From the IMG/VR virus record IMGVR_UViG_3300028601_000020: a stretch of 64,000 bases of DNA; one strand, written 5' to 3'. Below the pieces are notes generated by a model. That model made no database searches. It was not told the origin of the DNA and saw only the letters and a program-made list of their open reading frames with translations. This DNA is from a virus. Lineage: Duplodnaviria > Caudoviricetes. Both the position numbers and the translations under genes were made by a program. This document shows, one piece after another, positions 8,462-46,063 of this stretch; within the stretch, counting starts at the first letter, position 1; every line of letters starts with the position of its first letter.

Positions 8462-8494
8462 GCCCGAGTAGCTCCAATGGTAGAGCAATGCTCT
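8462..8494 (+). pseudogene. Truncated tRNA 5' half
   Basis: GCCCGAG TA GCTC CAATGGTA GAGC is an acceptor 5' strand plus canonical D arm; breaks off at the endonuclease cassette. Confidence 0.8.
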
Positions 8495-8502
8495 ACCAAT
8501 TT

Positions 8503-8547
8503 TCTATTTGTATAAATACTAGAAAGACAATTTATACAAATAGAGGA
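8503..8547 (+). promoter_or_regulatory. Late promoter TATAAATA (8511-8518) in a hairpin overlapping the RBS
   Basis: tctatttgtataaa / tttatacaaataga 14-bp inverted repeat. Confidence 0.75.
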
Positions 8548-8550
8548 TAA

Positions 8551-9354
8551 ATGGAACGAAATAAAAAACAGTGTTCAAAATGCGGCAAGGAAATATCCCT
8601 CTCCAACATTAAAAAGCATGAAAAATCATGTGGACAGAAGAAACATTCTTCTATTGATGAAAGTTGGAAACAACAGAGCGGAAAATACAAATGCCCGTTT
8701 TGTTCAAAAGAATACACGAAAGCAGGAATATCAACTCATATATGGAGAACACATGGAGAAGGGAAAGATTTTGATCCAAACATAGGATATAAAAATGGAA
8801 GGGTTGTGTGGAATAAAGGATTAACGAAAGAAGATGAACGAATTTTGAAACGAATCAAAACAATCAAAGAAAGATTCAAAACAGGAATGTATGGAAACAG
8901 ATTTTCATTTCCTCATTCCGAAAAAACAAAAATGCGTCTTTCTGAATTAGCGATAAAAAGAAAATTTGGTGGAGTGACAAGATCCAGAAGAATTAAATAT
9001 AAAAATAAAATTCTCGGAAGTTCTTATGAACTTGAGGTTGCAGTTTCATTAGAAGAGAATGGTATCAAATGGGAAACTTGTGACAGATTTAATTATGTTG
9101 ATGTGAATGGGAAAAAAAGAACTTACACCCCTGATTTTTATTTACCTGATTATGACGTGTATCTTGATCCAAAAAATGATTTTTTGATAAATAATATAAA
9201 TCCAGCATTGGGATACAAGGATTCTGAAAAAATAAAGTGGGCAGAGGAACAAAATGGTGTGATCATAATTATTCTAAATAAGAAAGAATTGAATTGGAAT
9301 TCAATAAAAGAAAAAATAGCCACAATTGTTCAAGGTGAACACGCCGTTTTGTAG
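8551..9354 (+). CDS. Putative homing endonuclease (zinc fingers, NUMOD, PD-(D/E)xK)
   Basis: CSKC and CPFC..H fingers, WNKGLTK, SSYE...YTPDFYL...YLDPK; 3' end overlaps a tRNA. Confidence 0.8.
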   Translation: MERNKKQCSKCGKEISLSNIKKHEKSCGQKKHSSIDESWKQQSGKYKCPFCSKEYTKAGISTHIWRTHGEGKDFDPNIGYKNGRVVWNKGLTKEDERILKRIKTIKERFKTGMYGNRFSFPHSEKTKMRLSELAIKRKFGGVTRSRRIKYKNKILGSSYELEVAVSLEENGIKWETCDRFNYVDVNGKKRTYTPDFYLPDYDVYLDPKNDFLINNINPALGYKDSEKIKWAEEQNGVIIIILNKKELNWNSIKEKIATIVQGEHAVL

Positions 9355-9390
9355 TCGGCTAAGGGGGTTCAATTCCTCATTGTGGCTCCA
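9319..9390 (+). tRNA. tRNA-Thr(UGU), divergent
   Basis: GCCACAA/TTGTGGC acceptor, anticodon loop TTTGTAG, GGTTCAATTCC, CCA; one mismatch each in anticodon and T stems. Confidence 0.7.
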
Positions 9391-9402
9391 TAAAAACAAA
9401 AC

Positions 9403-9490
9403 GGAAGATTGGCAGAACGGTAATGCATCGGTCTTGAAAACCGTAGTCTGGATAAAACCAGTGGGGGTTCAAATCCCTCATCTTCCGCCA
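9403..9490 (+). tRNA. tRNA-Ser(UGA)
   Basis: Cloverleaf with long variable arm, anticodon loop CTTGAAA, CCA. Confidence 0.92.
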
Positions 9491-9494
9491 TTTT

Positions 9495-9585
9495 GGGAGA
9501 CGCAAATAAGGATAGAGGGTTCTATCGGCTGGCTGTAAACCAGTTCCCTAAGGGCAAGGCGTTCAACTCGACCCGTCTCCCACCA
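9495..9585 (+). tRNA. tRNA-Tyr(GUA) with atypical D and T arms
   Basis: gctgg CTGTAAA ccagt anticodon arm, 8-bp acceptor GGGAGACG/CGTCTCCC, ACCA end. Confidence 0.75.
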
Positions 9586-9594
9586 TTTTTTCTG

Positions 9595-9636
9595 TTGACA
9601 GTCAAAACAAAATCAGATAATATACTTGTGAAAGTT
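9595..9636 (+). promoter_or_regulatory. Early promoter
   Basis: TTGACA-N17-TAATAT followed by TTGTGAAAGTT. Confidence 0.75.
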
Positions 9637-9664
9637 GATTGAATGAGTTTAAAAATCTCAAACT

Positions 9665-9925
9665 GTGGGGCACAAAATGATTACTTTCTCAAAAAACGAA
9701 ATTTCTGAAATCGCTAGCCTTATCCGGTCATGTGCTGTGTGGAGCGAAATGGTAAAAAACGGAATAAGGAAGCACTCGAATTTTGATGAAAAGACTGAAG
9801 AAGGACGTGAAGGTTTGCACAAAAATGTTGAAAAAGTTCGGGAGGCTATGAGGTGGCATGATGCTGATGCCAAAAAGCTGAATGAAATGTTAGGTGAGGA
9901 TGCCGTAACTCTTTTTAGATTATAA
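9665..9925 (+). CDS. Hypothetical early protein
   Basis: ORF directly after a promoter. Confidence 0.65.
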   Translation: MGHKMITFSKNEISEIASLIRSCAVWSEMVKNGIRKHSNFDEKTEEGREGLHKNVEKVREAMRWHDADAKKLNEMLGEDAVTLFRL

Positions 9926-10135
9926 CTGAGGAAAAAAGATGATTAAAGCAAAATCAGGAAAGTACAAACATGTTTGCTGGATAATTATTTTTGCCTGTCT
10001 GGTGATGGTTGGAAGAGCATCTTTCGTGACGTTCTCTTCTCCATCTGAAACACCGCCGCTTTATTTGAACGGGAGGGTTGTCATGAAGTAAATTTGTTTG
10101 TTCTTCTCCGCAACAAAAGGAGATGAATATAGTAC

Positions 10136-10705
10136 ATGCAAAAATGGAATGAATTTATTGATCTAATTCATTCCCCGGATTTCTTAATGACTTTTTCTAA
10201 TTATGTTGAAGACCACAAAAGGATATATGATCATGTAAAAATCAAAGGGGAAATGTTTGAGGAGATTTTGTATAAATCATTAAAAACGTATTCGTCGGGA
10301 ATTGAATGGAACCCGGGTGGGCATCAAGTTGGGTATGACATAAAGTTTTTTGATATTGGGATTTCTTGTAAGTGTGGTTCTGTAAAAAGCAACAAACTAA
10401 TAATTTCAGGTAGCAGAACCACACTACATAAAACAATAAAAGAAAAGATTGATTTTTTGAACAAAAACCATTATGATGTAATTGTTTCATTTGCAGAAAA
10501 TAAGAAAAAATATGAATTATATTGCCTTCCTCTTTCTTTCATTGAAATTGGAAAGCCAGAAGATTGGACAGAAACAGAAAAAGCGTGGGTTTACGAAAAT
10601 AAAAAAGGGCGTTACAGAATAGCAAAATCCACAAGTGACCAAATGTGGTACAGTTTTTTCATTGAAACGGTTGTTGACAAAAAAATTTTAATATTAGACA
10701 TTTGA
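10136..10705 (+). CDS. Hypothetical protein, possibly a PD-(D/E)xK nuclease
   Basis: GEMFE...YDI...ISCK spacing resembles a restriction-endonuclease fold; weak. Confidence 0.5.
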   Translation: MQKWNEFIDLIHSPDFLMTFSNYVEDHKRIYDHVKIKGEMFEEILYKSLKTYSSGIEWNPGGHQVGYDIKFFDIGISCKCGSVKSNKLIISGSRTTLHKTIKEKIDFLNKNHYDVIVSFAENKKKYELYCLPLSFIEIGKPEDWTETEKAWVYENKKGRYRIAKSTSDQMWYSFFIETVVDKKILILDI

Positions 10706-10720
10706 ATAGGAGACTGAAAA

Positions 10721-11194
10721 ATGATACTTTTTACTTGCCTTCCTCATTCTTGGGTTGATGTTATCACGAACAGTTCATCGGAACTGTTTACTTGTCGTGG
10801 TGAGTCAAAAGAAAGAATTGAAGAGCTAATTAAGAATGTGTATCCTGATTATTGGAAAGAATACGAACCAGTCAAAAGCATTGACGAATTGACAGCAGCC
10901 GATTTGTATACTTATATTTCTTATAGATATGAACGTTGGTCAAACTCTGCTCAAAAATTTATCCGTGACACTCCTTGTGGTATTTCAAAAGATGATTTTT
11001 GGGTTACAAAAAAGTCTGGTATTAATGAATATACCACTCTCAATGAAGATTATGTGATTGAGAATAAAGAAAAGATTATTGATGCAATTGATCCTAATCG
11101 GGAAATGTTTTTCTTGTTTTCTCTTGATAGTAACCCTAATTATGAAAAACAAGAATTGCTCTGTATGTTTATGGATCGTTATCATTTGGGGTAA
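10721..11194 (+). CDS. Hypothetical protein with N-terminal HSxVDVITNSSS motif
   Basis: Motif shared with 15339..15815. Confidence 0.75.
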   Translation: MILFTCLPHSWVDVITNSSSELFTCRGESKERIEELIKNVYPDYWKEYEPVKSIDELTAADLYTYISYRYERWSNSAQKFIRDTPCGISKDDFWVTKKSGINEYTTLNEDYVIENKEKIIDAIDPNREMFFLFSLDSNPNYEKQELLCMFMDRYHLG

Positions 11195-11203
11195 AAAGAC
11201 AAA

Positions 11204-11279
11204 TCCCGTATAGCTCAACGGTTAGAGTCGCCCGCTCATGACGGGTCGGTTACAGGTTCGAGTCCTGTTGCGGGAACCA
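11204..11279 (+). tRNA. tRNA with CAU anticodon (Met or Ile2)
   Basis: Cloverleaf, loop CTCATGA, GGTTCGAGTCC, CCA. Confidence 0.88.
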
Positions 11280-11287
11280 TTAAATGT

Positions 11288-11364
11288 CTCTCATTAGTTC
11301 AGTCTGGTAGAACACCTGCTTTGGGAGCAGGGGGTCGGCGGTTCAAATCCGTCATGGGAGACCA
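11288..11364 (+). tRNA. tRNA-Pro(UGG)
   Basis: Cloverleaf, loop TTTGGGA, GGTTCAAATCC, CCA. Confidence 0.92.
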
Positions 11365-11539
11365 TTTATTTTGGTACTAAAATGAAAAGCACAAAGAAGA
11401 AACTAAAAGAACTTGATGATATGATTCATCGTTTAAAAAATGTTGCAGACAAATATCCAGAAATGGATTGGTTTCTTCTTAGACAACTAAAAAGAGATCG
11501 GGATTTAGTGGCATCTACAATAGGCAAAAAGGAGAAAAA

Positions 11540-12454
11540 ATGAGGGTCGTCAACCATGAAGTTCAAGAAATCGTTGAAGTTCCAGACGATTTTGAAGAAA
11601 TGCTCCGACATATTGAAAAAGTTGGAAGAATTTGTTATCAGTCACAAGAGAGAATTACAGAAGATTCAGCAGAAAAATTTGTCAAAATGCTTTTTCGCCG
11701 GGGTCATTGGGCAATGCTTGAGCATTCTTGGCTTGTATTCACTTCGTATCCTCTTGATTGGGACCAATGGCACCAGCTTTATGAGTTGACTGATAGCCGA
11801 TTTTTACAAGTTCTAGTTGATGACAGAGATGAAAGAATTCCTATTATATGTGGAAATTGGCGGGCTTGGTTTGAGCAAATTATCGGACCGGCAAAAGACA
11901 ACAAAAACAAATTTGAACTTTTCAAACAATTGCCAGATATTATTAAGGATCTTTTTTCAGTGTATGACATTACGCTTGATCGGGTTCATTTGAACGAAGT
12001 TGAAGATCCGTACCTTTACCCGAAAGCATACACTGCAACGTTTTTGACTGATCGTGCTGTTACTCATGAAATGGTAAGGCATCGGCCATGTGCTTTTGCT
12101 CAAAAGTCGCAACGTTTTTGCGCTGATCGTGAATATCTTGAATTTGTTGCTCCTTATTATCTTGATTTGACTTCTGACTCTTCAACTGGTGTGTCCACGT
12201 GGACGTGCCTAATGAACAGGATTGAAGAGGATTATCATTTTGCATTGCGAAATGGGCAGACAGCGCAAGAGGCACGTTCTATGCTTCCTAATTGCACTGC
12301 AACACAGATTGCGATGACCGCAGATAGTGTAGAATGGGAACATGTGTTTGATATGAGATGTGCATCGGATGCATATCCACCAATCAGAAAACTTATGAGA
12401 GAAGTCAAAGAAACATTCAAGCACCGTGGATACATAAAGGACGAACAAAAATGA
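11540..12454 (+). CDS. thyX: Flavin-dependent thymidylate synthase
   Basis: GHWAMLEH, HEMVRHRPCAFAQKSQRF (RHRx7SxR), EARSMLPN. Confidence 0.93.
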   Translation: MRVVNHEVQEIVEVPDDFEEMLRHIEKVGRICYQSQERITEDSAEKFVKMLFRRGHWAMLEHSWLVFTSYPLDWDQWHQLYELTDSRFLQVLVDDRDERIPIICGNWRAWFEQIIGPAKDNKNKFELFKQLPDIIKDLFSVYDITLDRVHLNEVEDPYLYPKAYTATFLTDRAVTHEMVRHRPCAFAQKSQRFCADREYLEFVAPYYLDLTSDSSTGVSTWTCLMNRIEEDYHFALRNGQTAQEARSMLPNCTATQIAMTADSVEWEHVFDMRCASDAYPPIRKLMREVKETFKHRGYIKDEQK

Positions 12455-12528
12455 AAAAATATATCTTGCATCAAAACGGAGGATTTGTTTAAGTTATTCA
12501 CCTTAAAAACAAAGGGAGGCTTAAACAA

Positions 12529-12721
12529 AATGAAGTCTGTTACATTGATGGCAACGACAATTGATTCTAAGATTTACAACCGGGCAAGAAAATTTTATCT
12601 TGAAAGTATGGGAGAAATTTCTTGTGCTTTTTGTCCTTATCATGATGGAGAGAATTGGCGTCGGCATCGGAAATCAAAATGCTGGAAGCGTTTTCGCAAG
12701 ACTCAATACAAAACTAAATAA
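12529..12721 (+). CDS. Small basic hypothetical protein
   Basis: GGAGG RBS; CAFCPYH...WKRFRKTQYK. Confidence 0.6.
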
Positions 12722-12731
12722 GGAAACTTCC

Positions 12732-12802
12732 CGGGCACCTCTCAAAGCATGAAGTGCAAACCCGACTTGAATTGACAAGTATCGCCGTTAGGACGCTAAC
12801 GG
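12732..12802 (+). ncRNA. Candidate structured RNA upstream of tRNA-Arg
   Basis: GC-rich intergenic stretch with three successive stems (gcac/gtgc, acttg/caagt, ccgttag/ctaacgg). Confidence 0.35.
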
Positions 12803-12819
12803 AATGGGTATTTAAAAAA

Positions 12820-12907
12820 GCTCGGTATCCCCACCATGGTCTTCTAAACCATTCACGTTAAAAAAGTGGGAAGGAGTGGAGAGGTTCAATTCCTCTACCG
12901 AGTTCCA
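12820..12907 (+). tRNA. tRNA-Arg(UCU)-like RNA lacking a canonical D arm
   Basis: GCTCGGT/ACCGAGT acceptor, atggt CTTCTAA accat anticodon arm, agagg TTCAATT cctct T arm, CCA. Confidence 0.7.
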
Positions 12908-13629
12908 ACGTCTTTCTTTTTCTTGGTGTTAATTATATTTTTTTCTGTTATCAGCCCAAATTTTTTGAAACGAGTGTGCAAATTAACAAAACTATACGGA
13001 TATTTTATTTTTTTACAAAAATCAACATAAGAGAGGTTTGAATTTCTAAAATCAGTGTATAAAGAAATTATATGTTCTTTCTCTTTTTGAGTTTTCTTTT
13101 GCAGTTCTTTTTGTGTTTTGTGTTTTTCTGAATATAAACTTTTATTTTTTTGAATGAATTTTTGAATATCAACTATTCTTCCTTTTTCGCAACCATTGTC
13201 TAAATATGTCTGAAGATCGGATTTTTGAACTTTTCTTGAAATAAGAGTATAAGGACAGTAAATCCATGTTGTGCCGTATTGAGAGTTGTTAGATCCTTGT
13301 TGGAGAACTGACATGGATTCGGCAAAAAGTTTTCTGTGTTTTTCGTAAAGGTGAGAATTCCAGTATCTTTCTTGATTGCCACTTGCTGAATTCATCATGT
13401 TAAATGCTTTAATGAGTTTCCAAAATTTGGGGGATTTTGTTGGAACCATTTTAATTAAAAGATAATGACAAAGAAAATGTTTTCGTGCTGTAAGAGAAAC
13501 GATGTTGGTGGTATCGTCGGAACCGCCCATACATCTTGGAATGATATGATGGTTTTCAGTATAACCACTTGAATCGGAAGATGAAGTCAGTTTGAAATAA
13601 AGTTTTGTGTATTTGTTTTTTAGAAACAT
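12895..13629 (-). CDS. HNH homing endonuclease (Mob-like), antisense
   Basis: ENHHIIPRCMGGSDD..N...LTARKHFLCH; minus-strand TATAAATA upstream; stop overlaps the tRNA T arm. Confidence 0.88.
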   Translation of the reverse strand: MFLKNKYTKLYFKLTSSSDSSGYTENHHIIPRCMGGSDDTTNIVSLTARKHFLCHYLLIKMVPTKSPKFWKLIKAFNMMNSASGNQERYWNSHLYEKHRKLFAESMSVLQQGSNNSQYGTTWIYCPYTLISRKVQKSDLQTYLDNGCEKGRIVDIQKFIQKNKSLYSEKHKTQKELQKKTQKEKEHIISLYTDFRNSNLSYVDFCKKIKYPYSFVNLHTRFKKFGLITEKNIINTKKKKDVGTR

Positions 13630-13686
13630 GATGGTGTTTTAACCGTTAAATTTTAGTTTATATTATTATTTATATTTTTAAAATTT

Positions 13687-13701
13687 CCGGCCGGAGCACC
13701 A
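13687..13701 (+). pseudogene. tRNA 3'-end remnant
   Basis: ccggccggagcACCA followed by a T run, GC-rich in an AT-rich context, right at the HNH cassette edge. Confidence 0.55.
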
Positions 13702-13719
13702 TTTTCTTTCTCTTTTTTG

Positions 13720-13765
13720 TTGACGCGGATTTAAAAAGAATGTATTGTGTTTGTGAAAGTTAAGC
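13720..13765 (+). promoter_or_regulatory. Early promoter
   Basis: TTGACG-N17-TATTGT then gtttgtgaaagttaag. Confidence 0.75.
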
Positions 13766-13797
13766 GAAGTTCAAAACAATTTTTATGGAGGTTGATC

Positions 13798-14139
13798 ATG
13801 TCTTACATTTCTGAAGAAAGCAAAGCGAAAATTGTTGAAATCGTTACCAAGAAAGGCAAGGGTCTTCGGGCGACGAAACCGAAGACTGTTGATAATGATA
13901 CGGGCCGCGCTGCATACATTTGGCGATATGTTGCTTTCTGTGTTTCGCCAAAATCAATTCATCATTGTCTGCCAATGATGGCATTTTGCTATCTGTCAAA
14001 TGAAGATTTCAAGATTGCTCAGGACGACAAAAAGTTTTATGATGAACTTCATGCCATTGTAAATGAGATTGTTGATTCTTTCCCGAAAGAATCGTGGCAT
14101 GGTGTTCGTCGTTGGGGCACTGTTCTTGGTCGGATTTAA
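13798..14139 (+). CDS. Hypothetical early protein
   Basis: GGAGGT RBS before ATG 13798. Confidence 0.75.
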   Translation: MSYISEESKAKIVEIVTKKGKGLRATKPKTVDNDTGRAAYIWRYVAFCVSPKSIHHCLPMMAFCYLSNEDFKIAQDDKKFYDELHAIVNEIVDSFPKESWHGVRRWGTVLGRI

Positions 14140-14147
14140 TTAAAAGA

Positions 14148-14221
14148 GCGGGTATCGTATAATGGTAATACTTCTGACTTCCAATCAGATAATCTCGGTT
14201 CAATTCCGGGTACCCGCTCCA
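14148..14221 (+). tRNA. tRNA-Gly(UCC)
   Basis: Canonical cloverleaf, loop CTTCCAA, CCA. Confidence 0.95.
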
Positions 14222-14242
14222 AATTTTTAAGGAATCAAGACG

Positions 14243-14749
14243 ATGCAAACAGTTCTTGTCTTAAATGGTGATTATTCTTTCCTTAGTGTTGTTTCACTGA
14301 AAAAAGCAATGCAGTATATTATTAAAGGAAAGGTGCAAGTTGAAAAATATCTTGAATCCACTATCTGTTCAGCGACAGAAACTTTTCAGATTCCTTTAGT
14401 TGTTCGTTTTGTTAAATTCATCCGGCAAATGTATAAAAAGAAAGTTCCATGGAGCAAGAAAAATGTACTTCTTCGGGATGATGGTGTTTGTCAGTATTGT
14501 GGACAGACCGAAGGAGTAATGACAGTTGATCACGTCATTCCGAAATCACGAGGAGGACGAAATTCTTTTGAAAATGCTGTCTGTTCTTGTTTTCATTGCA
14601 ATAATAAAAAAGGTGATCGGCTTCCATCCGAGGCAAATATGTTCTTGACAAAGAAGCCCATCCATCCTACAATAGCGGAGTTCACTCAAAAAGTATTGAA
14701 GAAATCAAACATTGAAAATATTTTCAAAACATGGTTCGGTGAAAATTAA
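14243..14749 (+). CDS. HNH endonuclease (McrA-like)
   Basis: RDDGVCQYCG...TVDHVIPKSRGG...CFHCNNKKG. Confidence 0.92.
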   Translation: MQTVLVLNGDYSFLSVVSLKKAMQYIIKGKVQVEKYLESTICSATETFQIPLVVRFVKFIRQMYKKKVPWSKKNVLLRDDGVCQYCGQTEGVMTVDHVIPKSRGGRNSFENAVCSCFHCNNKKGDRLPSEANMFLTKKPIHPTIAEFTQKVLKKSNIENIFKTWFGEN

Positions 14750-14938
14750 ATGAAACCTTACTTGACACAATATTGGAATAAGTGTACAGTGTGTGGAAGA
14801 TTCATTCCGTTTGAAGACTTTAATGATAAGAAAGCATTTTCAAAATTGGTTTCGCCTGATTCTGCATTTAGTGTTGAACGGATTGAGTATTTTTGTAAAA
14901 AATGTGCTATTAAGGAGAAAAACGAAAATGAGTGTTGA
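14750..14938 (+). CDS. Small zinc-finger protein
   Basis: CTVCG and CKKC pairs. Confidence 0.6.
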   Translation: MKPYLTQYWNKCTVCGRFIPFEDFNDKKAFSKLVSPDSAFSVERIEYFCKKCAIKEKNENEC

Positions 14939-15170
14939 CCATTATACCACTGAAATGCGTTTACTGGTTCATAATGATAATACCGGAGATTATGTCATTG
15001 TAAAAGAAGATCCTGATGGTCTTGACATGGTAGGTATATCTTATGTTGACGGAGAAGGAAGCAAAGCAGAACGATTTCCTTTTATGGACATTGAAATGGC
15101 AGAAATTGTTGCCAGAAATATTCTTCAGGTTTGCGCGTTTGTTAAAAATAGGAAGTTAAAGGATGCATAA
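14928..15170 (+). CDS. Hypothetical protein
   Basis: AAGGAG RBS before ATG 14928. Confidence 0.6.
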   Translation: MSVDHYTTEMRLLVHNDNTGDYVIVKEDPDGLDMVGISYVDGEGSKAERFPFMDIEMAEIVARNILQVCAFVKNRKLKDA

Positions 15171-15354
15171 ACTTTCAAAACGACTAAGAGAAGGAGTTGA
15201 AGCCGCGCCATGGGTAATTGAAGAAATTAAAAAACTCGAACAAGAATTAAACGATGCTTATCTTGAAATGTATAAACTTCGTTTAAAGTTTCTTAGTGAC
15301 AAAGAAATCCACATTGAAGCGAAAAGGAGACATGACGAATGGTGCAAACAATAA
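15163..15354 (+). CDS. Hypothetical protein
   Basis: KLSKRLREGVEAAPWVIEEIKKLE; coupled ORF. Confidence 0.65.
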   Translation: MHKLSKRLREGVEAAPWVIEEIKKLEQELNDAYLEMYKLRLKFLSDKEIHIEAKRRHDEWCKQ

Positions 15355-15815
15355 AGATTCATTCAGTTGTAGATGTTATAACTAATAGTTCTTCAGTGAT
15401 TTATACTTATTCTGACAATGCTGTTAAACCACTAAAAGAACTTTTCACCGAAATTTTTAAGCTGCTTGGCGATCCTCAACACGTTGATGATGTTTTTGAT
15501 ATCGTAGCCATACCAGATGACGATGTTTTGTATGATCATTTTATTAATTTTGTTGAAGATTTGGATCCTGAATGGCCTTTTTATGAAAGATACAAAAAAA
15601 TCAGTGAAATGTCTCCTTCTTCAAGACAAGATTCTGAATTGGTGAATCTTTTTGTTGAAAAATATAAACGAGGAATCAAAGAAGATTGGATGGATGTTGG
15701 CGAAGATAGTGGTACCAAGTTGAAAATTTTCGTCAAAGATGAAAAATATAATGAACTGGCGAATAAAGCAATTAAGTTTCTTTATTCAACCCAACACGAA
15801 TCTATTTATAATTAA
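15339..15815 (+). CDS. Hypothetical protein with HSxVDVITNSSS motif
   Basis: Motif shared with 10721..11194; directly upstream of the radical SAM gene. Confidence 0.75.
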   Translation: MVQTIKIHSVVDVITNSSSVIYTYSDNAVKPLKELFTEIFKLLGDPQHVDDVFDIVAIPDDDVLYDHFINFVEDLDPEWPFYERYKKISEMSPSSRQDSELVNLFVEKYKRGIKEDWMDVGEDSGTKLKIFVKDEKYNELANKAIKFLYSTQHESIYN

Positions 15816-15829
15816 TTTTGAGGAGTAAT

Positions 15830-16693: not shown

Positions 16694-16699
16694 TAAAAT

Positions 16700-17731: not shown

Positions 17732-17815
17732 CTAGGATTAACGAGGATTGTCTGTGTTCAAGATTTGAAAGATTTTGATATCAGTGTATGCATCCAATAG
17801 AAAATTGATTACAAG
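17732..17815. repeat. Bipartite intergenic motif, copy 1
   Basis: ctaggattaacgaggattgtct...aaaattgattacaag, similar to 61732-61816 with nearly the same spacing. Confidence 0.65.
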
Positions 17816-17840
17816 CGATTTTAACATGAAAGGAGAAAAA

Positions 17841-18029
17841 ATGAAGATGCCGAAATTTTATACCATTGAAATAAAAAAGGCGAATGCGTATGATCACATT
17901 AGTTTTCGGTTCAGGAGTTTGTATAATGGTATGGTAGGAACTTCAAATGAAAATATTGATGATGCAATATTAGAAGGAGAGGCCCATGAAAAGATTGTTC
18001 GTTTCTTGCATGGAAAAACAAATTGCTGA
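17841..18029 (+). CDS. Hypothetical protein
   Basis: AAGGAG RBS before ATG 17841. Confidence 0.55.
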   Translation: MKMPKFYTIEIKKANAYDHISFRFRSLYNGMVGTSNENIDDAILEGEAHEKIVRFLHGKTNC

Positions 18030-18163
18030 TTCATTTGTAAAAAAATGTTCTAATTGTGGTTCAAGAAATGCTTGCTGTGATATTAACGATGATTTGAAAC
18101 CTTGCGAATATTGGTATTACGGAAATGGATATGGAAGTTCAATTTCAATGAAGGAGATGTAAA

Positions 18164-27697: not shown

Positions 27698-27700
27698 AAG

Positions 27701-38849: not shown

Positions 38850-40089
38850 ACAATATGGTGAAGGTGATTATGAAGTGCCGTATCCAGTAAATGATGAAAT
38901 TTTTGTTAAAACTCCTACAGGGAAATCAAAAATTTTGGCGGTGATCAAAAAACGAAGTAATGTAATTCGTGTTTGTTTTGAAGATGATGAAATTTTTGAA
39001 TGCTCAGAAAATCATGTTTTCTCTTGTGATGGTGAAACGGTTTTAGCAAAAAACGCAAAAATCGTGGACACCATTCACGGAAAGAAAAGAATTGATAAAA
39101 TTATTGACATTGGTGAGGAAGACGTATTTGATGTTAGCATTGAATCCCCACATTGGTACATTGCTAAAGAAAGCAGTGGATTGATTCATCATAATACTTT
39201 CTTTGTCTTGACAACAATGAAGGGATTTCTTACTGCGAATCCTAAGGCGATTGTTGTTTTGTTTGAATCTGAATCAGCCATAACGAAAACCTCTCTTGAA
39301 AATTTCGGTATTGACACAAAAAGAGTAATGGTTCTTCCTGTTGAAACTGTTGAACGTTTCAGACACCAATGTTTAAGCCTTCTGATTAAATACGGAGAGC
39401 AACCAGAATCAGAAAGGAGACCGATTCTTATCATTCTTGATTCCCTTGGAATGTTGTCCACTGAAAAAGAAATGGGTGATATTACAGAAGGGAAGGACAC
39501 AAAAGACATGACAAGAGCGCAGATCATTAAAGCGGCTTTTCGTGTCTTGACATTAAAACTAGGCAAACTTGGAATTCCGTTTCTTCTAACGAACCATTCT
39601 TATCAGACCATGGGAATGTTTGCTCAAACTGTTCAAGGTGGCGGGTCCGGCCCTGAGTATGCGGCGTCCACAATCGTTTTCTTGTCAAAGAAGAAAGACA
39701 AGTTAGGAAACGAAGTCGTGGGTAATATCATTCATTGTAAGCTGAATAAAGGCAGACTAACAAAAGAAAATTCCGCTGTTGATACTGCTATCAATTATCA
39801 AACCGGCCTAAATCGCTGGCACGGAATGATTGAATTTGCTCTTGAAACGGGTGTTTGGGAAAAGTCTGGAACACGGATAAAAATCCACACAGACGAATTA
39901 CTTTTTCCCAAAGCAATAATGAATAATGTTGAAAATATTTTCAGTTCTGATATACTATCTAAAATTGATTCATATTGTAACAAGAAATTCCTTTACGGGA
40001 ATGCACAAGAAAATTCACAAGAAAAGGAGAACCATGATGGAGAATCCAGTTCAGACAGTGATAACAACGATTCGGGCGAAGAAGTCTAA
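38812..40089 (+). CDS. uvsX: C-intein (128 aa, ends HHN at 39195) plus UvsX C-extein
   Basis: ECSENHVF (block B), VFDVSI (block F), IHHN/T (block G); then FESESA, LDSLG, DMTRAQ, GGGSG. Confidence 0.92.
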   Translation: MKKHTMTYQNLYEQYGEGDYEVPYPVNDEIFVKTPTGKSKILAVIKKRSNVIRVCFEDDEIFECSENHVFSCDGETVLAKNAKIVDTIHGKKRIDKIIDIGEEDVFDVSIESPHWYIAKESSGLIHHNTFFVLTTMKGFLTANPKAIVVLFESESAITKTSLENFGIDTKRVMVLPVETVERFRHQCLSLLIKYGEQPESERRPILIILDSLGMLSTEKEMGDITEGKDTKDMTRAQIIKAAFRVLTLKLGKLGIPFLLTNHSYQTMGMFAQTVQGGGSGPEYAASTIVFLSKKKDKLGNEVVGNIIHCKLNKGRLTKENSAVDTAINYQTGLNRWHGMIEFALETGVWEKSGTRIKIHTDELLFPKAIMNNVENIFSSDILSKIDSYCNKKFLYGNAQENSQEKENHDGESSSDSDNNDSGEEV

Positions 40090-40318
40090 CGACAAACTGG
40101 TTTTTGAAATTCTTGATGGTCCGTTTGAAGGAGTGGAATATTCTATTAATGAAGATTCACTTTCAGTAGAAGGCGAAGATGTTACATTTATGTATGAAAT
40201 CAGCAATCCAGACATTTATCGTGCTGCTGCAAGAAATATGCTGGAGCGTATTATCAAGTCGGATGTTATCAAGCGGATTGAAAATCATGTAAACGAAAAA
40301 CTTGGTACAAATGGGTGA
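40034..40318 (+). CDS. Hypothetical protein at the gp40 position between uvsX and 41
   Basis: AAGGAG RBS; synteny only. Confidence 0.55.
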   Translation: MMENPVQTVITTIRAKKSNDKLVFEILDGPFEGVEYSINEDSLSVEGEDVTFMYEISNPDIYRAAARNMLERIIKSDVIKRIENHVNEKLGTNG

Positions 40319-41756
40319 TATAGACACACAAGAATTGTCAAGAGTAGAAGACCTTATATTTAATGGATTGGTTAATAATGACAACTATTTTTATAAGGTC
40401 TTTCCTTTCCTCAAAGAAGAATATTTTGACGATAAAGAAAAGGTAATATTCAAAATATTCAAATTTCATCATGATAAGTTTGATAAAAAAGCAACACCAG
40501 AAATTCTTGAGGTTTATCTTGACAAATACAGAAATACCAACGAAACACTCTTTTCTGCTGCAACTGATTTTTTCTTTAAGATTAAACCAGAACGACCAAC
40601 TTTAGATTATGATTGGTTGACCGATGCAACAGAAGAATATTGTCAGGATAAAGCATTATATAATGCACTTGCAAAAGCAGTTTCAATTTATGACAGGGAA
40701 ACAGACGAACAACCAAAATCAAGCATTCCTGAAATTCTCCAAGAGGCACTAGGAGTAACATTTGATAATGACAATGGTCTTGATTATTTTGAGGACGCAC
40801 AAAAAAGATTTGAACGTCTTCATTTAAAATATGATAAAGTTCCTTTTTTGTGTGACGTATTAAATGAAATTACTGATGGCGGATTTGAACTAAAGACGGT
40901 TAACTGTTTTTTGTCCGCAACAAACGTCGGAAAGTCTGCCATGATGACATGGCTTTCAACAGAGTATTCATTACAAGGAAAGAAGGTTCTTTACTTGACA
41001 ATGGAAATGGCTGAAGAAAAGATTGCTCAACGAATGGATGCTTGTTTGTTCAATCGTACTTTATCGCAAGTCAAAAACATGGATGAAGATGAATTTCTTG
41101 GTAGTGTTCATAATTTGACAAAAAAGGGAATGGGCAAGATCATAGTGAAAGAGTTTCCAACAGCATCCGTTCATATGGGACATGTTGAAGCGTATTTGCG
41201 GGAGTTGAAATTAAAAAAGAATTTTGAACCCGATGTGGTAATGCTTGACTATTTGAATATTTGTTTATCAAAGCGCGTTTCTTTGAATAAAGGAACATAT
41301 ATGTTCGTCAAATCAATTGCGGAAGAATTTCGTGGTTTAGCAGTGAAAAACAATTTTTGTGGCATTACGGCTGTTCAGGGGGACCGTTCAACCATTGAGT
41401 CTTCTGATATTGGATTACAGAATGTTGGCGAGTCAAAGGGTATTAACGATACAGTGGATTTCATGCTTGGTCTTATGGCACCTGAAGAAATAAAAGCGCA
41501 GGGTATTATGCTCTGCAAACAACTCAAAAGTCGTTATGGTGATGTAAACAGAAAGAAGCGATTCGCTTTGATATTTGATTCTGAAAAAATGAAGTTTGAA
41601 GACAGTTCCGATTTAAAAATAGAAGGATTCAATGCTCCTAAAGGAGATAAGAACAAAGATGTCCCTTTATTTGATAAAAGCACAAACAACAGAATTATTG
41701 AAGAAAATTTAGGAGATAAGACCAACGATTTATTAAACAGTGGTATCAAGTGGTAA
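40311..41756 (+). CDS. 41: Replicative helicase gp41 (DnaB-like)
   Basis: TNVGKS Walker A, TMEMAEEKIAQRMDA, KEFPT, LDYLNIC, IAEEFRGLA, KQLKSRY. Confidence 0.95.
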   Translation: MGDIDTQELSRVEDLIFNGLVNNDNYFYKVFPFLKEEYFDDKEKVIFKIFKFHHDKFDKKATPEILEVYLDKYRNTNETLFSAATDFFFKIKPERPTLDYDWLTDATEEYCQDKALYNALAKAVSIYDRETDEQPKSSIPEILQEALGVTFDNDNGLDYFEDAQKRFERLHLKYDKVPFLCDVLNEITDGGFELKTVNCFLSATNVGKSAMMTWLSTEYSLQGKKVLYLTMEMAEEKIAQRMDACLFNRTLSQVKNMDEDEFLGSVHNLTKKGMGKIIVKEFPTASVHMGHVEAYLRELKLKKNFEPDVVMLDYLNICLSKRVSLNKGTYMFVKSIAEEFRGLAVKNNFCGITAVQGDRSTIESSDIGLQNVGESKGINDTVDFMLGLMAPEEIKAQGIMLCKQLKSRYGDVNRKKRFALIFDSEKMKFEDSSDLKIEGFNAPKGDKNKDVPLFDKSTNNRIIEENLGDKTNDLLNSGIKW

Positions 41757-42683
41757 AATGAAAGATGGTGTTTTGGTTTTACAATTATCAAAATGCCATC
41801 TTTTCATTGCTGATATTCCTCCTTCTTTACCACAAACGGGGCAAATAACAATTTCTGTTTGTTTATGTTTTTTGTGGGTTTTACGTCGTCGCTCCATTTT
41901 GATTCTTTCAATATCCTGATTTGGTTTTAATAAACAGTTATCAAAATGATTTCTAGTCATTGCCGGTTTTCCGCCCTCTTTATTACAATGAGGGCATTTT
42001 ACAATTTCATGTTTAGTGCCAAGGTGTGCTTTGCTCATATTTTGTTTTGCTGTATCTGTGTGTTTATATCCTTTTATTGCTAAAGCGTTATTCCTTTTAT
42101 GTTCTTCAGTTCTTGGTGGTTTCTTTTTCCCAGCATTCTTTTTACTAATTTTCTGTTTTGTTTCTTCTGTATGATGTTTCCCATACATTGGATGATTTTC
42201 GCCAGAACGAGAAAGACTCATCTTCTTTTTTGCTTCTTCCGTGTGTTTTCTTCCTCTATTGGCATCACCAATTTTTTGTTTAGTTTCTTCAGTATGTTCT
42301 TTGTCATAAAAACTATTTAACTCTCCTTTTTTGGTTTTGCCTATTTTGCTTAATTTCTTCTTTGTTTCTTCGGAATGAAAACTCGGTCCCATGCCGCCGC
42401 CACAACAATTATATGTATCTTTACGTGCAATAAATGCTTTATTTACAATTTCTCTTTCTTTGGCATAAGCCTCTTCGGAAGTATAATAAACAAAAAGAGT
42501 TTCACGAATAAAATTTTCTTTACCGTATTTTTTAATAGCCATATTTAATGCCATACCACTTCCTAGGTAACCTTCAAAGAGAATTGGGAAATGAAATTTT
42601 TGGTGATGCACGCCAATATAGATTTTCTGATTGACAAGATTGGTAGTTTTGTATACAATATAAATATGATTAGATTCTGACAT
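41733..42683 (-). CDS. GIY-YIG (Seg-like) homing endonuclease with NUMOD3 repeats, antisense
   Basis: IYIVYKTTNLVNQKIYIGVH...YLGSG; HTEETKQKI repeats; two CPxC..WHFDNC-type modules. Confidence 0.92.
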   Translation of the reverse strand: MSESNHIYIVYKTTNLVNQKIYIGVHHQKFHFPILFEGYLGSGMALNMAIKKYGKENFIRETLFVYYTSEEAYAKEREIVNKAFIARKDTYNCCGGGMGPSFHSEETKKKLSKIGKTKKGELNSFYDKEHTEETKQKIGDANRGRKHTEEAKKKMSLSRSGENHPMYGKHHTEETKQKISKKNAGKKKPPRTEEHKRNNALAIKGYKHTDTAKQNMSKAHLGTKHEIVKCPHCNKEGGKPAMTRNHFDNCLLKPNQDIERIKMERRRKTHKKHKQTEIVICPVCGKEGGISAMKRWHFDNCKTKTPSFILPLDTTV

Positions 42684-42765
42684 GCTATATCTCCAGTATA
42701 GAAGTTAGGATTTAGGTTTATGGGGAATTCCCGTTCCCCATAAACCGTTTCTTATATTATTTATA
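42684..42765 (-). promoter_or_regulatory. Late promoter plus structured leader of the GIY-YIG gene
   Basis: TATAAATA (42758-42765, minus strand), 13-bp hairpin 42715-42746. Confidence 0.75.
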
Positions 42766-42775
42766 CAAATCAAAC

Positions 42776-42913
42776 AATGCTCCTAAAGACGGAAAACAGG
42801 AAAGTGATACACCAATTTTTGACAGAGGAACAAATAATAGAATTCTTGAAGAGAAACCAGATTTAACAGGAGATGCAACAAAAGCACTTCTTTCAGGAGG
42901 GATAAAATGGTAA
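42776..42913 (+). pseudogene. Orphaned original C-terminus of the gp41 helicase
   Basis: NAPKDGKQESDTPIFDRGTNNRILEE...LLSGGIKW aligns with the helicase tail NAPKGDKNKDVPLFDKSTNNRIIEE...LLNSGIKW. Confidence 0.9.
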
Positions 42914-43101
42914 TTTATCAATGGTTCAACACAGTAAAAGGAACTGATATATACGGAAGAGAGGTTCCTATTAGAATTCTATGCGAACTTCCGGATGTTG
43001 ACATTCCCAGTTATATGAGAAAGAGACTTCCGCCTTCTTTTAAAACAGATTTTGATTTAATTGACGAATTTATAAAGGAAAACGACGCATGGGAAAAATG
43101 A
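42907..43101 (+). CDS. Hypothetical protein
   Basis: ATG overlaps the orphan helicase stop; GGAGG RBS. Confidence 0.65.
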   Translation: MVIYQWFNTVKGTDIYGREVPIRILCELPDVDIPSYMRKRLPPSFKTDFDLIDEFIKENDAWEK

Positions 43102-43928
43102 AAGGAGTAAACGTTTATGTGATTTCCGACATTCATCTTGAATTTTATGATGGTATCGGTGGTGATGAAGTAATGAAAAAGATTGCTGATCAAGTAAACC
43201 AATTTGAATGTAATGTTGTCGTGATTGCCGGTGATCTTTGCCCTATTAGGTGGGCAAGACAAGTTTTGAATAAATTTGCTGAAATGGTTCCTGATAGTGA
43301 TATTTTGTATGTTCCGGGGAACCATGAATTTTATGGAGAAAATTATGCAAGAATAAATAGAGACAAGCTCAATATTATTGTTCGGGAAGATTTGAATGAT
43401 CGGGTTTTTATGTTGGATCGTTCAACGTATAGTAAGAATGATGTTGTTTTTCATGGAATTACCGGATGGATAGACGAATCATGGCAACGAATTCATTTTG
43501 ATGAAGATATGGTTGAATATGATTTTTACAGAAAGCGGTATTCTGATTTTTCTCAAATTAAGAATTTTCAATTGACTCTTGAAAAAGGAAAGTCAGACTT
43601 TAAGTGGCTTTGTAACCAATTGAATAATTACAAAGAGTATAATGCTCGAATTCAAGAATATAATGTTTATCAGAATCAAATTGTGATAACTCATTTCATG
43701 CCATGTAAAGAATTCGTTCATCCAAGGTTTCTCAAAAGCAAAATAAATAATTGTTTTGCGAACGATTGGAAAGAGAAGATCAAAAATCTTGGGGTGGATT
43801 ATTGGATTTATGGTCATACGCACGATAAAAGCATTAAGACTGAAAACAGCACAAAATTTATTTGCAACCCAGTTGGTTATCCCCATGAGCCAACTTATTC
43901 ATTAACGGCTTACGTCATTAACCTCTAA
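43089..43928 (+). CDS. Calcineurin-like metallophosphoesterase
   Basis: SDIHLE, AGD, PGNHE, THFMP, YGHTH, NPVGY. Confidence 0.92.
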   Translation: MGKMKGVNVYVISDIHLEFYDGIGGDEVMKKIADQVNQFECNVVVIAGDLCPIRWARQVLNKFAEMVPDSDILYVPGNHEFYGENYARINRDKLNIIVREDLNDRVFMLDRSTYSKNDVVFHGITGWIDESWQRIHFDEDMVEYDFYRKRYSDFSQIKNFQLTLEKGKSDFKWLCNQLNNYKEYNARIQEYNVYQNQIVITHFMPCKEFVHPRFLKSKINNCFANDWKEKIKNLGVDYWIYGHTHDKSIKTENSTKFICNPVGYPHEPTYSLTAYVINL

Positions 43929-43939
43929 AAGGAAGAAAA

Positions 43940-44191
43940 ATGGAAACACCACAGGAATCAACCCTTGACATTTTTGATTATTACACTATAATGGACAGAA
44001 CGTCGGTTATTTTAAACAATTTCGGAGATGTTGCGGTTCTGGCTGAAAGCTGTCCCGAATTGTCTGCTAAAGCAGATTCGTTGGCAGAAGCGATTGCCGA
44101 TTTTTATCAAAGTGCTGCTAATCGTTTCAATGAGGAACTTGATGAAATTGATGATAGTGGAGAATATGATGAAGAGGATGAAGAGAGTTAA
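43940..44191 (+). CDS. Acidic hypothetical protein
   Basis: ORF with AAGGA RBS. Confidence 0.7.
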   Translation: METPQESTLDIFDYYTIMDRTSVILNNFGDVAVLAESCPELSAKADSLAEAIADFYQSAANRFNEELDEIDDSGEYDEEDEES

Positions 44192-44220
44192 ACTGTCTTC
44201 AATTATTACTGATTGACACA

Positions 44221-44254
44221 AAAAGCAGAAGGAAATCCTTCTGCTTTTCTTTTT
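44221..44254. terminator. Bidirectional-looking Rho-independent terminator
   Basis: aaaagcagaagg-aaat-ccttctgctttt. Confidence 0.8.
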
Positions 44255-44268
44255 AAAGGAGAAAAGGA

Positions 44269-44295
44269 ATGATTAAAACCTTTCATCGTTTTTGA
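44269..44295 (+). pseudogene. Orphaned original N-terminus (MIKTFH) of the DHH gene
   Basis: AAGGAG RBS plus ATG; tttca shared with the new start LKIGIFH at 45131. Confidence 0.65.
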
Positions 44296-45017
44296 CATTT
44301 CTCGCCGTGATGTTGTTTAAAATTTCCAGCATCAAAGAATCCGCCACAATGTTCACATTCAAATTTTGGTATATTTCTTGATGCTGGGTCAAAATTAGGA
44401 TTTTCTTTACACTTTTCACCGTGCCATTTATGATAATTTAAAGAACAGATATATTTACCACAGTATTCACATAATATATCTGGTCTTTCTGACATGATTT
44501 TTCTTTGTTGCCGTGATCGTTTTTTTCGGTTTTCTGGATTAGCCCACCGTCTTCTGTTTTGTTCACTATGTTTACTTCGTGTTTCTATGGACCTTTTGAT
44601 CCCACAATTTGCTTGTTTCAACTCCCCGGAGATGTATCTTTCATCTAATACGGATATTCTAAAAATTTTGCCACTGTCATCTTTGACAGAAACCTTTCCT
44701 TTTGCTGCTTTCCAAGCATCTCCTCTACCTCCGGTGCAGAGATTATATGTGTCTTTCCGTTTTACAAATGCTTCATTTACAAGTTCTGCTTCTTTAGCAA
44801 ATGCTTCTTTTTTGTTATAGAAAACAAAGAGGGTTTCACGAATGAAGTTTTCTTCACCATATTTCTTGATTGCTTTTTTCAAATCTTTCCCGCTTCCTAA
44901 ATAACCATCAAATAAAATAGGAAAGAAAAATTTTTGTTTATGTACACCAATATAGATTTTCTGATTGACAAGATTGGTTGTTTTGTATACAATATAAATA
45001 TGCTTAGATTCTGACAT
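44283..45017 (-). CDS. GIY-YIG (Seg-like) homing endonuclease, antisense
   Basis: MSESKHIYIVYKTTNLVNQKIYIGVH...YLGSG; C-terminal CExC..HGEKC modules. Confidence 0.92.
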   Translation of the reverse strand: MSESKHIYIVYKTTNLVNQKIYIGVHKQKFFFPILFDGYLGSGKDLKKAIKKYGEENFIRETLFVFYNKKEAFAKEAELVNEAFVKRKDTYNLCTGGRGDAWKAAKGKVSVKDDSGKIFRISVLDERYISGELKQANCGIKRSIETRSKHSEQNRRRWANPENRKKRSRQQRKIMSERPDILCEYCGKYICSLNYHKWHGEKCKENPNFDPASRNIPKFECEHCGGFFDAGNFKQHHGEKCQKR

Positions 45018-45103
45018 GCTATACCTCGAATATAGTGTGGAAGAGTTTAGGTTCACAGAAGAATTGACGGTTCTTCTGTGAACTGTTTATAATATTATTT
45101 ATA
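45018..45103 (-). promoter_or_regulatory. Late promoter plus structured leader of the GIY-YIG gene
   Basis: TATAAATA (45096-45103, minus strand), 13-bp hairpin 45051-45083. Confidence 0.75.
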
Positions 45104-45115
45104 TAAGGAGATATT

Positions 45116-46063
45116 TTGAAAATAGGAATTTTTCACTATGATTTAGACGGAGTTTCTTGTGCCATCGTATTAAACAAAGTTTTTGAATTTGATCAGATTT
45201 TAAGGGGAGGATACGGTCGTATTCCAGAATTGATTGACCAGATTCCTGATGATGCTTCCATTATTGTCTCTGATTTAGTCATTTCAGAAAGTGATTATGA
45301 AAAACTTTTAGACAAGTCTAAAGGAAAATTGATAATCATTGACCATCATCCTGAAACCAATAAGCTCAAAGAAAAATATCCAAAGCATCCAATTTATTAC
45401 GCAGAAGACAAAGCAGGAGTAATGCTCTGTTATGAATTACTGCAAAAGAAAGGAATGAAATTTTCGCTTGACATGTATGAGTTATCAAGATATGCTAACG
45501 CATACGATTTGTTTAAGCGTAAAGAAGAGAAAGCATTATTCACTGAAGGGTTTAACTTGAATCTTCTTTTCTGGAAATATCATTTTGATGCTTTTTTTGA
45601 TCGTTTTCAGCACGGATTTGATGGATACACCGAAGAGGAACTTAAATTTATCGGATATTCGCGGAAGATGCAGAAAGAAATGTTAGAATCCGCAAACTAT
45701 CACGAATTTTTGGGGAACAATTCAAAAGCTCTTGTTTCTGTTCTTGACAATTCTTCAATAATCAATGAAGTTCCTTACTATAAGACTGGATATGATGTTT
45801 ATTTTATGATCACCAAGTTCAAAAATAACATTAATATCAGTGTCCGGGCAGGAGATAACGGCCTCATTATAAATTCTCCATGCAAAGAAATTGAAAAATC
45901 AAAATACGTTTCAAGCGCAGGCGGACATCCTCAAGCGTGTGGAATTACAGTTGACGCGGACACTCCTGATGAAGCTCTAACCCGAATTATTTTGACTTAT
46001 TATAAACTATTAGAGGAAACGAATGCCGATATCCTTAACAGAAAAACAAAAAGCCGCAGTTGA
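45116..46063 (+). CDS. DHH-family phosphoesterase
   Basis: HYDLDG, SD, IDHH, SVR, GGHPQACG. Confidence 0.92.
   Translation: MKIGIFHYDLDGVSCAIVLNKVFEFDQILRGGYGRIPELIDQIPDDASIIVSDLVISESDYEKLLDKSKGKLIIIDHHPETNKLKEKYPKHPIYYAEDKAGVMLCYELLQKKGMKFSLDMYELSRYANAYDLFKRKEEKALFTEGFNLNLLFWKYHFDAFFDRFQHGFDGYTEEELKFIGYSRKMQKEMLESANYHEFLGNNSKALVSVLDNSSIINEVPYYKTGYDVYFMITKFKNNINISVRAGDNGLIINSPCKEIEKSKYVSSAGGHPQACGITVDADTPDEALTRIILTYYKLLEETNADILNRKTKSRS

Follow-up and report, generated by a model that had tools for sequence, protein, structure and literature searches.

Free-standing nuclease genes at the ends of protein and tRNA genes in an uncultured T4-like phage, probably inserted together with substitutes for the ends they displaced

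We analyzed a 64,000-nucleotide stretch of the IMG/VR virus record IMGVR_UViG_3300028601_000020 (here called the window), a piece of an uncultured T4-like phage in which free-standing nuclease genes sit at the ends of protein and tRNA genes. At four loci (A to D), the nuclease gene lies between an orphaned gene end or tRNA stump and an intact but diverged equivalent. We consider it likely that cassettes A to D are homing-endonuclease insertions inside gene ends that carry a foreign substitute for the displaced end, acquired via a diverged donor. A preliminary description had listed five such loci (A to E), and its account was borne out in most respects: all five intronless nuclease open reading frames (ORFs) are present and match nuclease families, four of them (A, B, C, and E) are antisense to the operon, and the stop codons of all five sit within a remnant or a replacement. 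The pairing of a remnant with a diverged equivalent held at loci A, B, C, and D; it is doubtful at locus E, where a relative without the nuclease keeps both pieces. The empty (naive) allele that had been predicted, host gene plus orphan end, was found at A, B, C, and D, with relatives carrying the orphan end and not the replacement.

DNA near-identical to the window occurs in landfill, wastewater, compost, digester, and soil metagenomes from 13 studies. A megablast search of INPHARED phages with positions 7500 to 14500 and 40000 to 46500 matched only a tRNA-Pro and found no close cultured phage. Relatives were found among IMG/VR contigs by a degenerate DNA pattern for a helicase peptide; a scan of genome contigs with such a pattern gave no match. 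Two of the relatives, G001 and G002, overlap each other and belong to a single phage with 94 to 95% identity to the window, and a third, L162, has 98% identity. Nucleases A, C, D, and E are missing from G001, which has B and a further nuclease, F; G002 lacks A and has B; L162 has A and lacks B. Nucleases A, B, and C are therefore present or absent among relatives that are 94 to 98% identical. Alternative alleles at loci D, E, and F were seen in contigs from four metagenome runs (X2, X5, X6, and X7).

At locus A, the gene for a gp41-type replicative helicase (positions 40302 to 41756, plus strand; 42% identity to marine myophage helicases among the matches listed) is overlapped tail to tail by 24 nucleotides by nuclease A (41733 to 42683, minus strand). 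The helicase ends in ...NAPKGDKNKDVPLFDKSTNNRIIEENLGDKTNDLLNSGIKW, and its last ~38 codons (41644 to 41756) form the putative imported replacement tail. Past the antisense nuclease lies an unstarted second copy, NAPKDGKQESDTPIFDRGTNNRILEEKPDLTGDATKALLSGGIKW (42775 to 42913, plus strand), which we regard as the orphaned native tail; it overlaps the next gene (start at 42907) through ATGGTAA and holds the ribosome-binding site of that gene. Local alignment of 41630 to 41756 with 42775 to 42913 gave a score of 42, which none of 300 shuffles reached (19.7 ± 2.5), and the two copies share 65% DNA identity and 25 of 45 residues. The orphan tail is identical to the C-terminus of a naive full-length helicase, P0132, at 45 of 45 residues. 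Among helicase sequences at least 90% identical, 10 have naive tails of the second-copy type, 3 have replacement tails of the first-copy type, and 2 have hybrid tails. L162 carries nuclease A together with both tail copies. The tail of G001, which lacks nuclease A, is a hybrid, of replacement type up to AACAGAATT and of orphan type from CTTGAAGAG; the change from one type to the other falls within a short stretch of identity. Such a tail is the expected leftover of recombination between the two copies, either within one genome or with a naive genome.

A mirror-image arrangement was found at locus C, at the N-terminus of a 112-residue protein. The orphan start (27697 to 27730, plus strand) comprises a ribosome-binding site and the first 10 codons (MKHYKEFIVE), and contains the stop codon of nuclease C (27720 to 28484, minus strand). 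On the far side of the nuclease, the presumed replacement start (28598 to 28636, plus strand) supplies a ribosome-binding site, a start codon, and the initial codons (MKKMKHFSSFIVE), which continue into the gene body (gene 28598 to 28945), and the working copy in the window begins MKKMKHFSSFIVEM. In G001, which is without nuclease C, the gene begins MKHYKEFIVEM, and its DNA equals the orphan of the window at 33 of 33 bases. The two starts within the window (27696 to 27729 and 28602 to 28635) agree at 26 of 34 bases, a score reached by 4 of 300 shuffles. In the protein cluster, the naive class (MKHYKEF) is the majority and also occurs in 86% relatives, and the replacement class (MKKMKHFSSF, 115 residues) is the minority.

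Locus B lies at the N-terminus of a DHH phosphoesterase gene. Its orphan start (44255 to 44281, plus strand) consists of a ribosome-binding site and the first 4 codons (MIKT), and the presumed replacement start (45116 to 45136, plus strand) of a TTG and the first 7 codons (KIGIFH) of the gene, which runs from 45116 to 46063. Between them is nuclease B (44283 to 45056, minus strand; its likely true start is the ATG at 45017). Alignment of the flanks alone is not significant here, and the identity of the orphan is settled by the empty allele in L162: without nuclease B, the DHH gene begins at the orphan's ribosome-binding site and ATG (MIKSCLTHYDLGG..., MIKSCLTHYD...). The order in the window is a ribosome-binding site with ATGATTAAAACCT, the nuclease, its promoter, a new ribosome-binding site, TTG, and KIGIFH joined to YDLDG. 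The protein cluster again divides into two N-terminal classes, native proteins of 316 residues starting MIK(S/T)CLTHYD and proteins of 315 residues starting MK(I/T)GIFHYD, and a 50% relative begins MKTLISHYD; two allele classes thus exist in the clusters of all three protein genes. Identity profiles place a co-conversion tract of ~200 to 300 nucleotides to the right of B, and gave no clear tract around the other cassettes.

Duplicated ends of this kind could also arise locally, if a tandem copy of a gene end formed in place, a nuclease landed between the copies, and these then diverged with no foreign DNA involved. The copies do have perfectly identical edges (14 nucleotides at A; 12 and 11 nucleotides at C), and the differences at locus C cluster in 12 nucleotides, which could reflect local selection and not import. 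However, the two copies differ at 35% of DNA positions, against 2 to 6% between whole genomes of the relatives. The orphan is 100% of naive type, and the divergence is confined to the other copy. Furthermore, the replacement-type ends resemble those of more distant relatives (LGDKTKDLL in P0002, MKT... in P0136, and MKHF in P0158). We therefore regard a purely local origin of the copies as improbable and favor import of the replacement ends.

Locus D extends the pattern to a tRNA gene, within the tRNA cluster of the window. Upstream of nuclease D (8551 to 9354, plus strand) is a 27-nucleotide stump of a tRNA-Thr(UGU) (8462 to 8488, plus strand) that comprises the acceptor strand and D arm, tRNA positions 1 to 27. 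In the same place, G001 has an intact resident tRNA-Thr(UGU), whose positions 1 to 27 match the stump at 26 of 27 bases; this 5' half of the old tRNA-Thr was found in G001 only. A second tRNA-Thr(UGU), diverged from the resident one and apparently its replacement (9319 to 9390, plus strand), starts 36 nucleotides ahead of the stop codon of nuclease D, and the last 12 codons of the nuclease fall within it. This tRNA was called by ARAGORN and has a cloverleaf fold; its Rfam score of 26.9 bits is under the 29-bit cut-off. Alignment of the DNA flanks is not significant at this locus, which is settled by the relatives. Nuclease D is carried by contigs from X5 and X7 and is skipped in an X6 contig. 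Separately, in run X2 the region corresponding to window positions 8488 to 9394 has a 240-nucleotide piece resembling the 5' end of nuclease E (13390 to 13629) between the tRNA-Thr stump and a tRNA-Ser, which suggests a second nuclease type at this site.

The association of nuclease D with tRNA genes is not confined to the window. The nuclease D family comprises 2247 representative clusters at E ≤ 0.001, and at 42 of the 68 distinct IMG/VR loci its ORF runs into a tRNA on the same strand or stops no more than 30 nucleotides before it; at 32 of these 42 the ORF end lies inside the tRNA, typically 10 to 24 nucleotides in. An unannotated tRNA 5' stump (positions 1 to 28) lies 6 to 175 nucleotides upstream of the ORF start at 12 of 38 loci examined, and of 21 tRNA 5' stumps found near ORFs of the family, 14 were in the 290-nucleotide zone upstream. 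The amino-acid identity of the stump is usually that of the linked tRNA, and the closest relatives of nuclease D are followed by a tRNA-Thr. For many members (at L197, L203, L205, L209, and other IMG/VR loci), the linked tRNA is a long-armed tRNA-Ile(UAU) of 91 to 96 nucleotides. These counts indicate that the breaking and replacing of tRNAs is a property of the family and not an accident of the window. The tRNA travels with the nuclease across many phages, and this movement across unrelated phages is a further argument against copies that arose by local duplication. More broadly, with roughly even probability, end-replacement homing may be a common strategy by which nuclease genes reside in phage genes, a third one in addition to introns and inteins. 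As part of it, nuclease D may stand for a large and so far undescribed family of homing endonucleases, composed of zinc fingers and a PD-(D/E)XK domain, that break tRNA genes where the D arm meets the anticodon stem. Such enzymes would depend on linkage to a replacement tRNA, the first bases of which encode the last residues of the enzyme.

Duplicated ends could in principle also be chimeras of two strains created during assembly: the window itself was assembled from a metagenome, and alleles of both types exist side by side in nature. The same filled layouts recur, however, in independent assemblies from several studies: at locus A in L162, at B in G001 and G002, and at D in the X5 and X7 contigs. 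In addition, the junctions are exact, and the flanking copies contain the stop codons of the nucleases; full-length proteins of the replacement type come from JGI, ENA, and Logan sources. An assembly artefact therefore has a very small probability, and we take the filled layouts to be real alleles.

The case of locus E is different. Here nuclease E (12895 to 13629, minus strand) is accompanied by an element resembling tRNA-Arg(UCU) (12820 to 12906, plus strand), a candidate replacement with no D arm and a long variable region, and by a 17-nucleotide piece ending in CCA (13687 to 13703, plus strand), a candidate tRNA 3' remnant. ARAGORN and the Rfam tRNA model make no call at 12820 to 12906, and the element matches tRNA-Sec weakly, at 28.8 bits. 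G001, without nuclease E, keeps both the tRNA-Arg-like element (identical) and the 17-mer (one change), ~55 nucleotides apart. This counts against locus E as a further end replacement and makes the pairing of the odd tRNA with the 17-mer as break and replacement doubtful. Nuclease E may simply have inserted between genes, downstream of an odd tRNA-like gene that was already there; the 17-mer would then be a chance resemblance, and no break and replacement would have taken place. The G001 allele speaks for this, as do near-repeats of 13 to 14 nucleotides that flank the insertion and a flank alignment at E that is not significant; the 17-mer, found in 11 other, unrelated IMG/VR contigs, is never the end of an intact tRNA there. 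On the other hand, in contigs from X2 and X7 the block 12818 to 13684, containing the odd tRNA and nuclease E, is replaced by 143 other letters and the odd tRNA is absent, and the edges of this block lie no more than 2 nucleotides from the first base of the odd tRNA and from the 17-mer. These edges would fit an older break and replacement at E, with the nuclease lost later in G001. Moreover, G001 retains the last 48 nucleotides of the nuclease E frame, like a deletion derivative, and is a secondary-loss allele at locus A as well. A 30-mer from the X7 allele had no match in IMG/VR. Weighing both sides, we give plain insertion at E slightly less than an even chance.

For loci A to D, we propose the following mechanism. 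The nuclease would cut a naive genome near a gene end, and repair would copy from a diverged donor phage in which the nuclease adjoins the homologous gene. Repair through homology on the gene-body side would bring the donor's gene end in with the nuclease by co-conversion. The other junction would arise at the break or close to it, with no homology involved, and the resident end would thereby be displaced as an orphan. The resulting order would be gene body, foreign end, nuclease, and orphan end. At N-termini this order would be reversed, and the cassette would also include a new ribosome-binding site and start codon; in the tRNA case, the cassette would supply a whole new tRNA-Thr. Since gene body and orphan would offer homology on both sides, the unit could then home into naive alleles by ordinary double-strand-break repair, and the diverged replacement end would probably be without the recognition site. 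Loss of the nuclease through recombination between the copies would leave a hybrid end. Support for this mechanism comes from the architecture of the loci and from the population genetics of their alleles.

Several points beyond locus E weigh against this interpretation. Cleavage of the naive alleles by the nucleases and resistance of the replacement ends are steps that we infer, and no donor genome with an intergenic nuclease beside a replacement-type end was found. At locus A, the sole cassette-free DNA obtained is the hybrid, pure naive alleles being known as proteins only. The orphan at locus B has only ~13 nucleotides of coding sequence, and native codons 5 to 8 are missing and not duplicated. 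At locus D, G001 also has a tRNA-Asn, a tRNA-Glu, and a small ORF that are all missing in the window, which implies that the exchange removed more than the remainder of tRNA-Thr and was larger than a clean insertion. Finally, two other nuclease genes show that insertion without end replacement also occurs in this phage, so the idea of a systematic strategy, put forward in the preliminary description, does not apply universally even here.

The first of these, nuclease F (24489 to 25340, minus strand), interrupts an HD-domain gene precisely at its HD-motif codons (region 24311 to 25800), and the gene is broken in both the window and G001. Contigs from X2, X6, and X7 are without nuclease F, and joining the sequence across it restores a 187-residue protein with ...ILTAAYLHDTVEDT...; the DNA flank alignment at this locus is not significant. 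The second, a nuclease ORF at 5309 to 6256, splits an RlaP-like nucleotidyltransferase gene into two parts (4564 to 5241 and 6231 to 6668), both with new tails, and the gene is in one piece in G001. A G002 paralogue of the GIY-YIG nucleases A to C serves as a control: its position is intergenic, and its flanks are not duplicated. The window also holds an ORF-less group I intron (20722 to 20957; Rfam Intron_gpI, 76 bits) in DNA polymerase motif B (KIMMNS|EYG), which is absent from G001 and is the only such match, distant from the five loci; Rfam group I intron models had no match at any of loci A to E. The host genes at A, B, and C keep their own stops and starts, and the antisense nuclease ORFs there lie outside any intron or intein. 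Collectively, the loci reveal four outcomes of invasion in one phage: replaced ends, a split gene, a broken gene, and a true intron. Upstream of the intron, the polymerase frame (18950 to 20700) seems to stop at 20476 and to resume near 20640, which may be a second split or a short insert.

Protein family searches and structure comparison were used to assign the nucleases. Nuclease A is a GIY-YIG enzyme with NUMOD3 and zinc ribbons and has PHROG, Pfam, and NCBIfam-type matches (TIGR01453 at 70 bits; cut-off, 56 bits); nuclease B is a GIY-YIG enzyme, and nuclease C a GIY-YIG enzyme with NUMOD3. All three match phrog_314 (E values of 3e-53, 4e-41, and 1e-61 for A, B, and C, respectively), the Pfam SegE_GIY-YIG match being under the cut-off for B and C, and the residues of the GIY-YIG motif are invariant in their alignment. 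They are paralogues, nearly alike over the first ~100 residues and different in their DNA-binding tails (NUMOD3 repeats and zinc ribbons). Nuclease E is HNH-like and Mob-like (phrog_655, E = 1.5e-37), with Pfam HNH and HNH_5 matches under the cut-off, nuclease F is HNH-like (phrog_12434, E = 6e-11), and the ORF at 5309 to 6256 encodes a nuclease domain similar to TnsA. Nuclease D combines zinc fingers at its N-terminus with a PD-(D/E)XK domain at its C-terminus and has PHROG and Pfam matches; NCBIfam gave no match, and a PDB sequence search gave only weak matches to T7 endonuclease I. In a Foldseek search with its AlphaFold model (pLDDT 88), the best hit was I-Bth0305I (PDB 3r3p), a homing endonuclease with a Vsr-like PD-(D/E)XK catalytic domain, followed by Vsr, T7 endonuclease I, and TnsA. 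The C-terminal domain of nuclease D matched I-Bth0305I with a probability of 0.99 and a TM-score of 0.56 on the target, at an E value of only 0.011 and 19% identity; nuclease D also differs from I-Bth0305I in its N-terminal zinc fingers and in its link to tRNA genes.

In total, the window holds at least seven free-standing nuclease cassettes, each with a T4-type late promoter, a ribosome-binding site, and a nuclease ORF. The late-promoter motif TATAAATA occurs 18 times in the window, against 4.15 expected, and lies directly upstream of all seven nuclease ORFs on the ORF's own strand. Cassettes A to D contain hairpins (fold z scores of -4 to -7). In A, B, and C, a hairpin of 13 to 14 base pairs, different in sequence each time, lies between the promoter and the ribosome-binding site (hairpins at 42715 to 42746, ~45051 to 45083, and 28516 to 28549; own late promoters at 42758 to 42765, 45096 to 45103, and 28561 to 28568, respectively). 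The promoter motif of nuclease D (upstream region 8499 to 8548, plus strand) is within a hairpin that covers its ribosome-binding site, the fold of 8462 to 8550 having an energy of -31.6 kcal/mol (z = -7.3), and the late promoter of nuclease E is at 13667 to 13674. This agrees with the late promoters and hairpin control of T4 endonuclease genes (PMC2988022).

G001 differs from the window in further places. In place of a PFIN-like ORF of the window (27248 to 27697), it has ~500 nucleotides of GC-rich, foreign-looking DNA (L173, 1576 to 2074), which may be another mobile piece or a chimeric assembly. Blocks 9944 to 11273, 14925 to 16699, and 17767 to 18863, which include a tRNA-Met and a radical-SAM gene, are also missing in G001, and no nuclease family match was found in them.

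The preliminary description had not recognized the layout of loci A to D as a described one, but the same layout is established for the mobile endonuclease ORFs of fungal mitochondria (PMC3630166). These form hybrid genes in Allomyces macrogynus (atp6), Glomus sp. (atp6, atp9, cox2, and nad3), Rhizopus (atp9), and Mortierella (cox2), and in the Allomyces atp6 and the four Glomus genes the inserted C-terminus is 64 to 81% identical, and the native C*-terminus kept downstream 91 to 98% identical, to relatives (PMC3630166). As in the mitochondria, at loci A, B, and C a foreign end is in frame with a native body and the native end is kept beyond the nuclease ORF, and the native end is the one closer to relatives (45 of 45 against 25 of 45 residues at A; 33 of 33 against 26 of 34 bases at C). 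The values are comparable too, with 65% identity between the copies here. The mitochondrial ORFs differ in being on the same strand, in phase or cotranscribed, whereas nucleases A, B, and C run antisense to their host genes and each have a late promoter of their own; the mitochondrial enzymes are also mostly of the LAGLIDADG type, whereas those of the window are GIY-YIG, PD-(D/E)XK, and HNH enzymes. Also distinct are the phage setting, the N-terminal cassettes that supply a new ribosome-binding site and start codon, the tRNA case, and the alleles in which loss left a hybrid end. End replacement is thus a known layout from fungal mitochondria found here in phage form, and is not a new principle.

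Among phage systems, the Seg and Mob enzymes of T4 (SegE, SegF, and SegG) show intronless homing with co-conversion of flanks (PMC2330249, PMC2988022). So far as these papers describe them, they share with the window free-standing GIY-YIG and HNH genes that are present or absent among relatives, late promoters, hairpin control, and replacement of flanking markers along with the nuclease gene; unlike those of the window, they are described there as lying between genes, without a duplicated or orphan gene end (PMC2330249, PMC2988022). The review text of PMC2988022 makes no mention of duplication or remnants. T4 SegB is a GIY-YIG enzyme in a tRNA cluster that targets tRNA genes (T-psi-C region, 3' end) and whose homing replaces the neighboring tRNA region of the recipient (PMC2330249). 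Nuclease D is alike in lying in a tRNA cluster and in being absent from close relatives whose tRNA region differs, but it has a PD-(D/E)XK fold, its stumps end at tRNA position 27 to 28, and its ORF enters the replacement tRNA. In Aeromonas phage Aeh1, mobE in nrdA makes 'genes in pieces', with tails that arose on insertion and two proteins that reassemble (PMC3045599). Here too, a free-standing nuclease entered coding sequence without splicing, and sequences arriving with the insertion keep the host function; however, nrdA is split midway, whereas at the loci of the window a terminal piece is replaced and the gene stays single. The nuclease at 5309 to 6256 is the closer match to mobE. In the searchable literature, outside which most subscription journals lie, we found no report of a phage whose gene ends are duplicated or orphaned next to a free-standing endonuclease.

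Taken together, these findings indicate that intergenic gaps, introns, and inteins are not the only places open to the free-standing homing endonucleases of phages: with a substitute end, they can also settle in the ends of essential genes, such as that of the replicative helicase, and in tRNA genes. Because filled, empty, and hybrid alleles exist at several loci in one phage population, target sites, resistance changes, and recombinational loss are directly testable. In annotation, an orphan gene end, an odd start codon, or an aberrant "spare" tRNA beside a nuclease gene is the footprint of such an event and not a gene in its own right. Finally, the ends of essential phage proteins can move between lineages as passengers of selfish genes.

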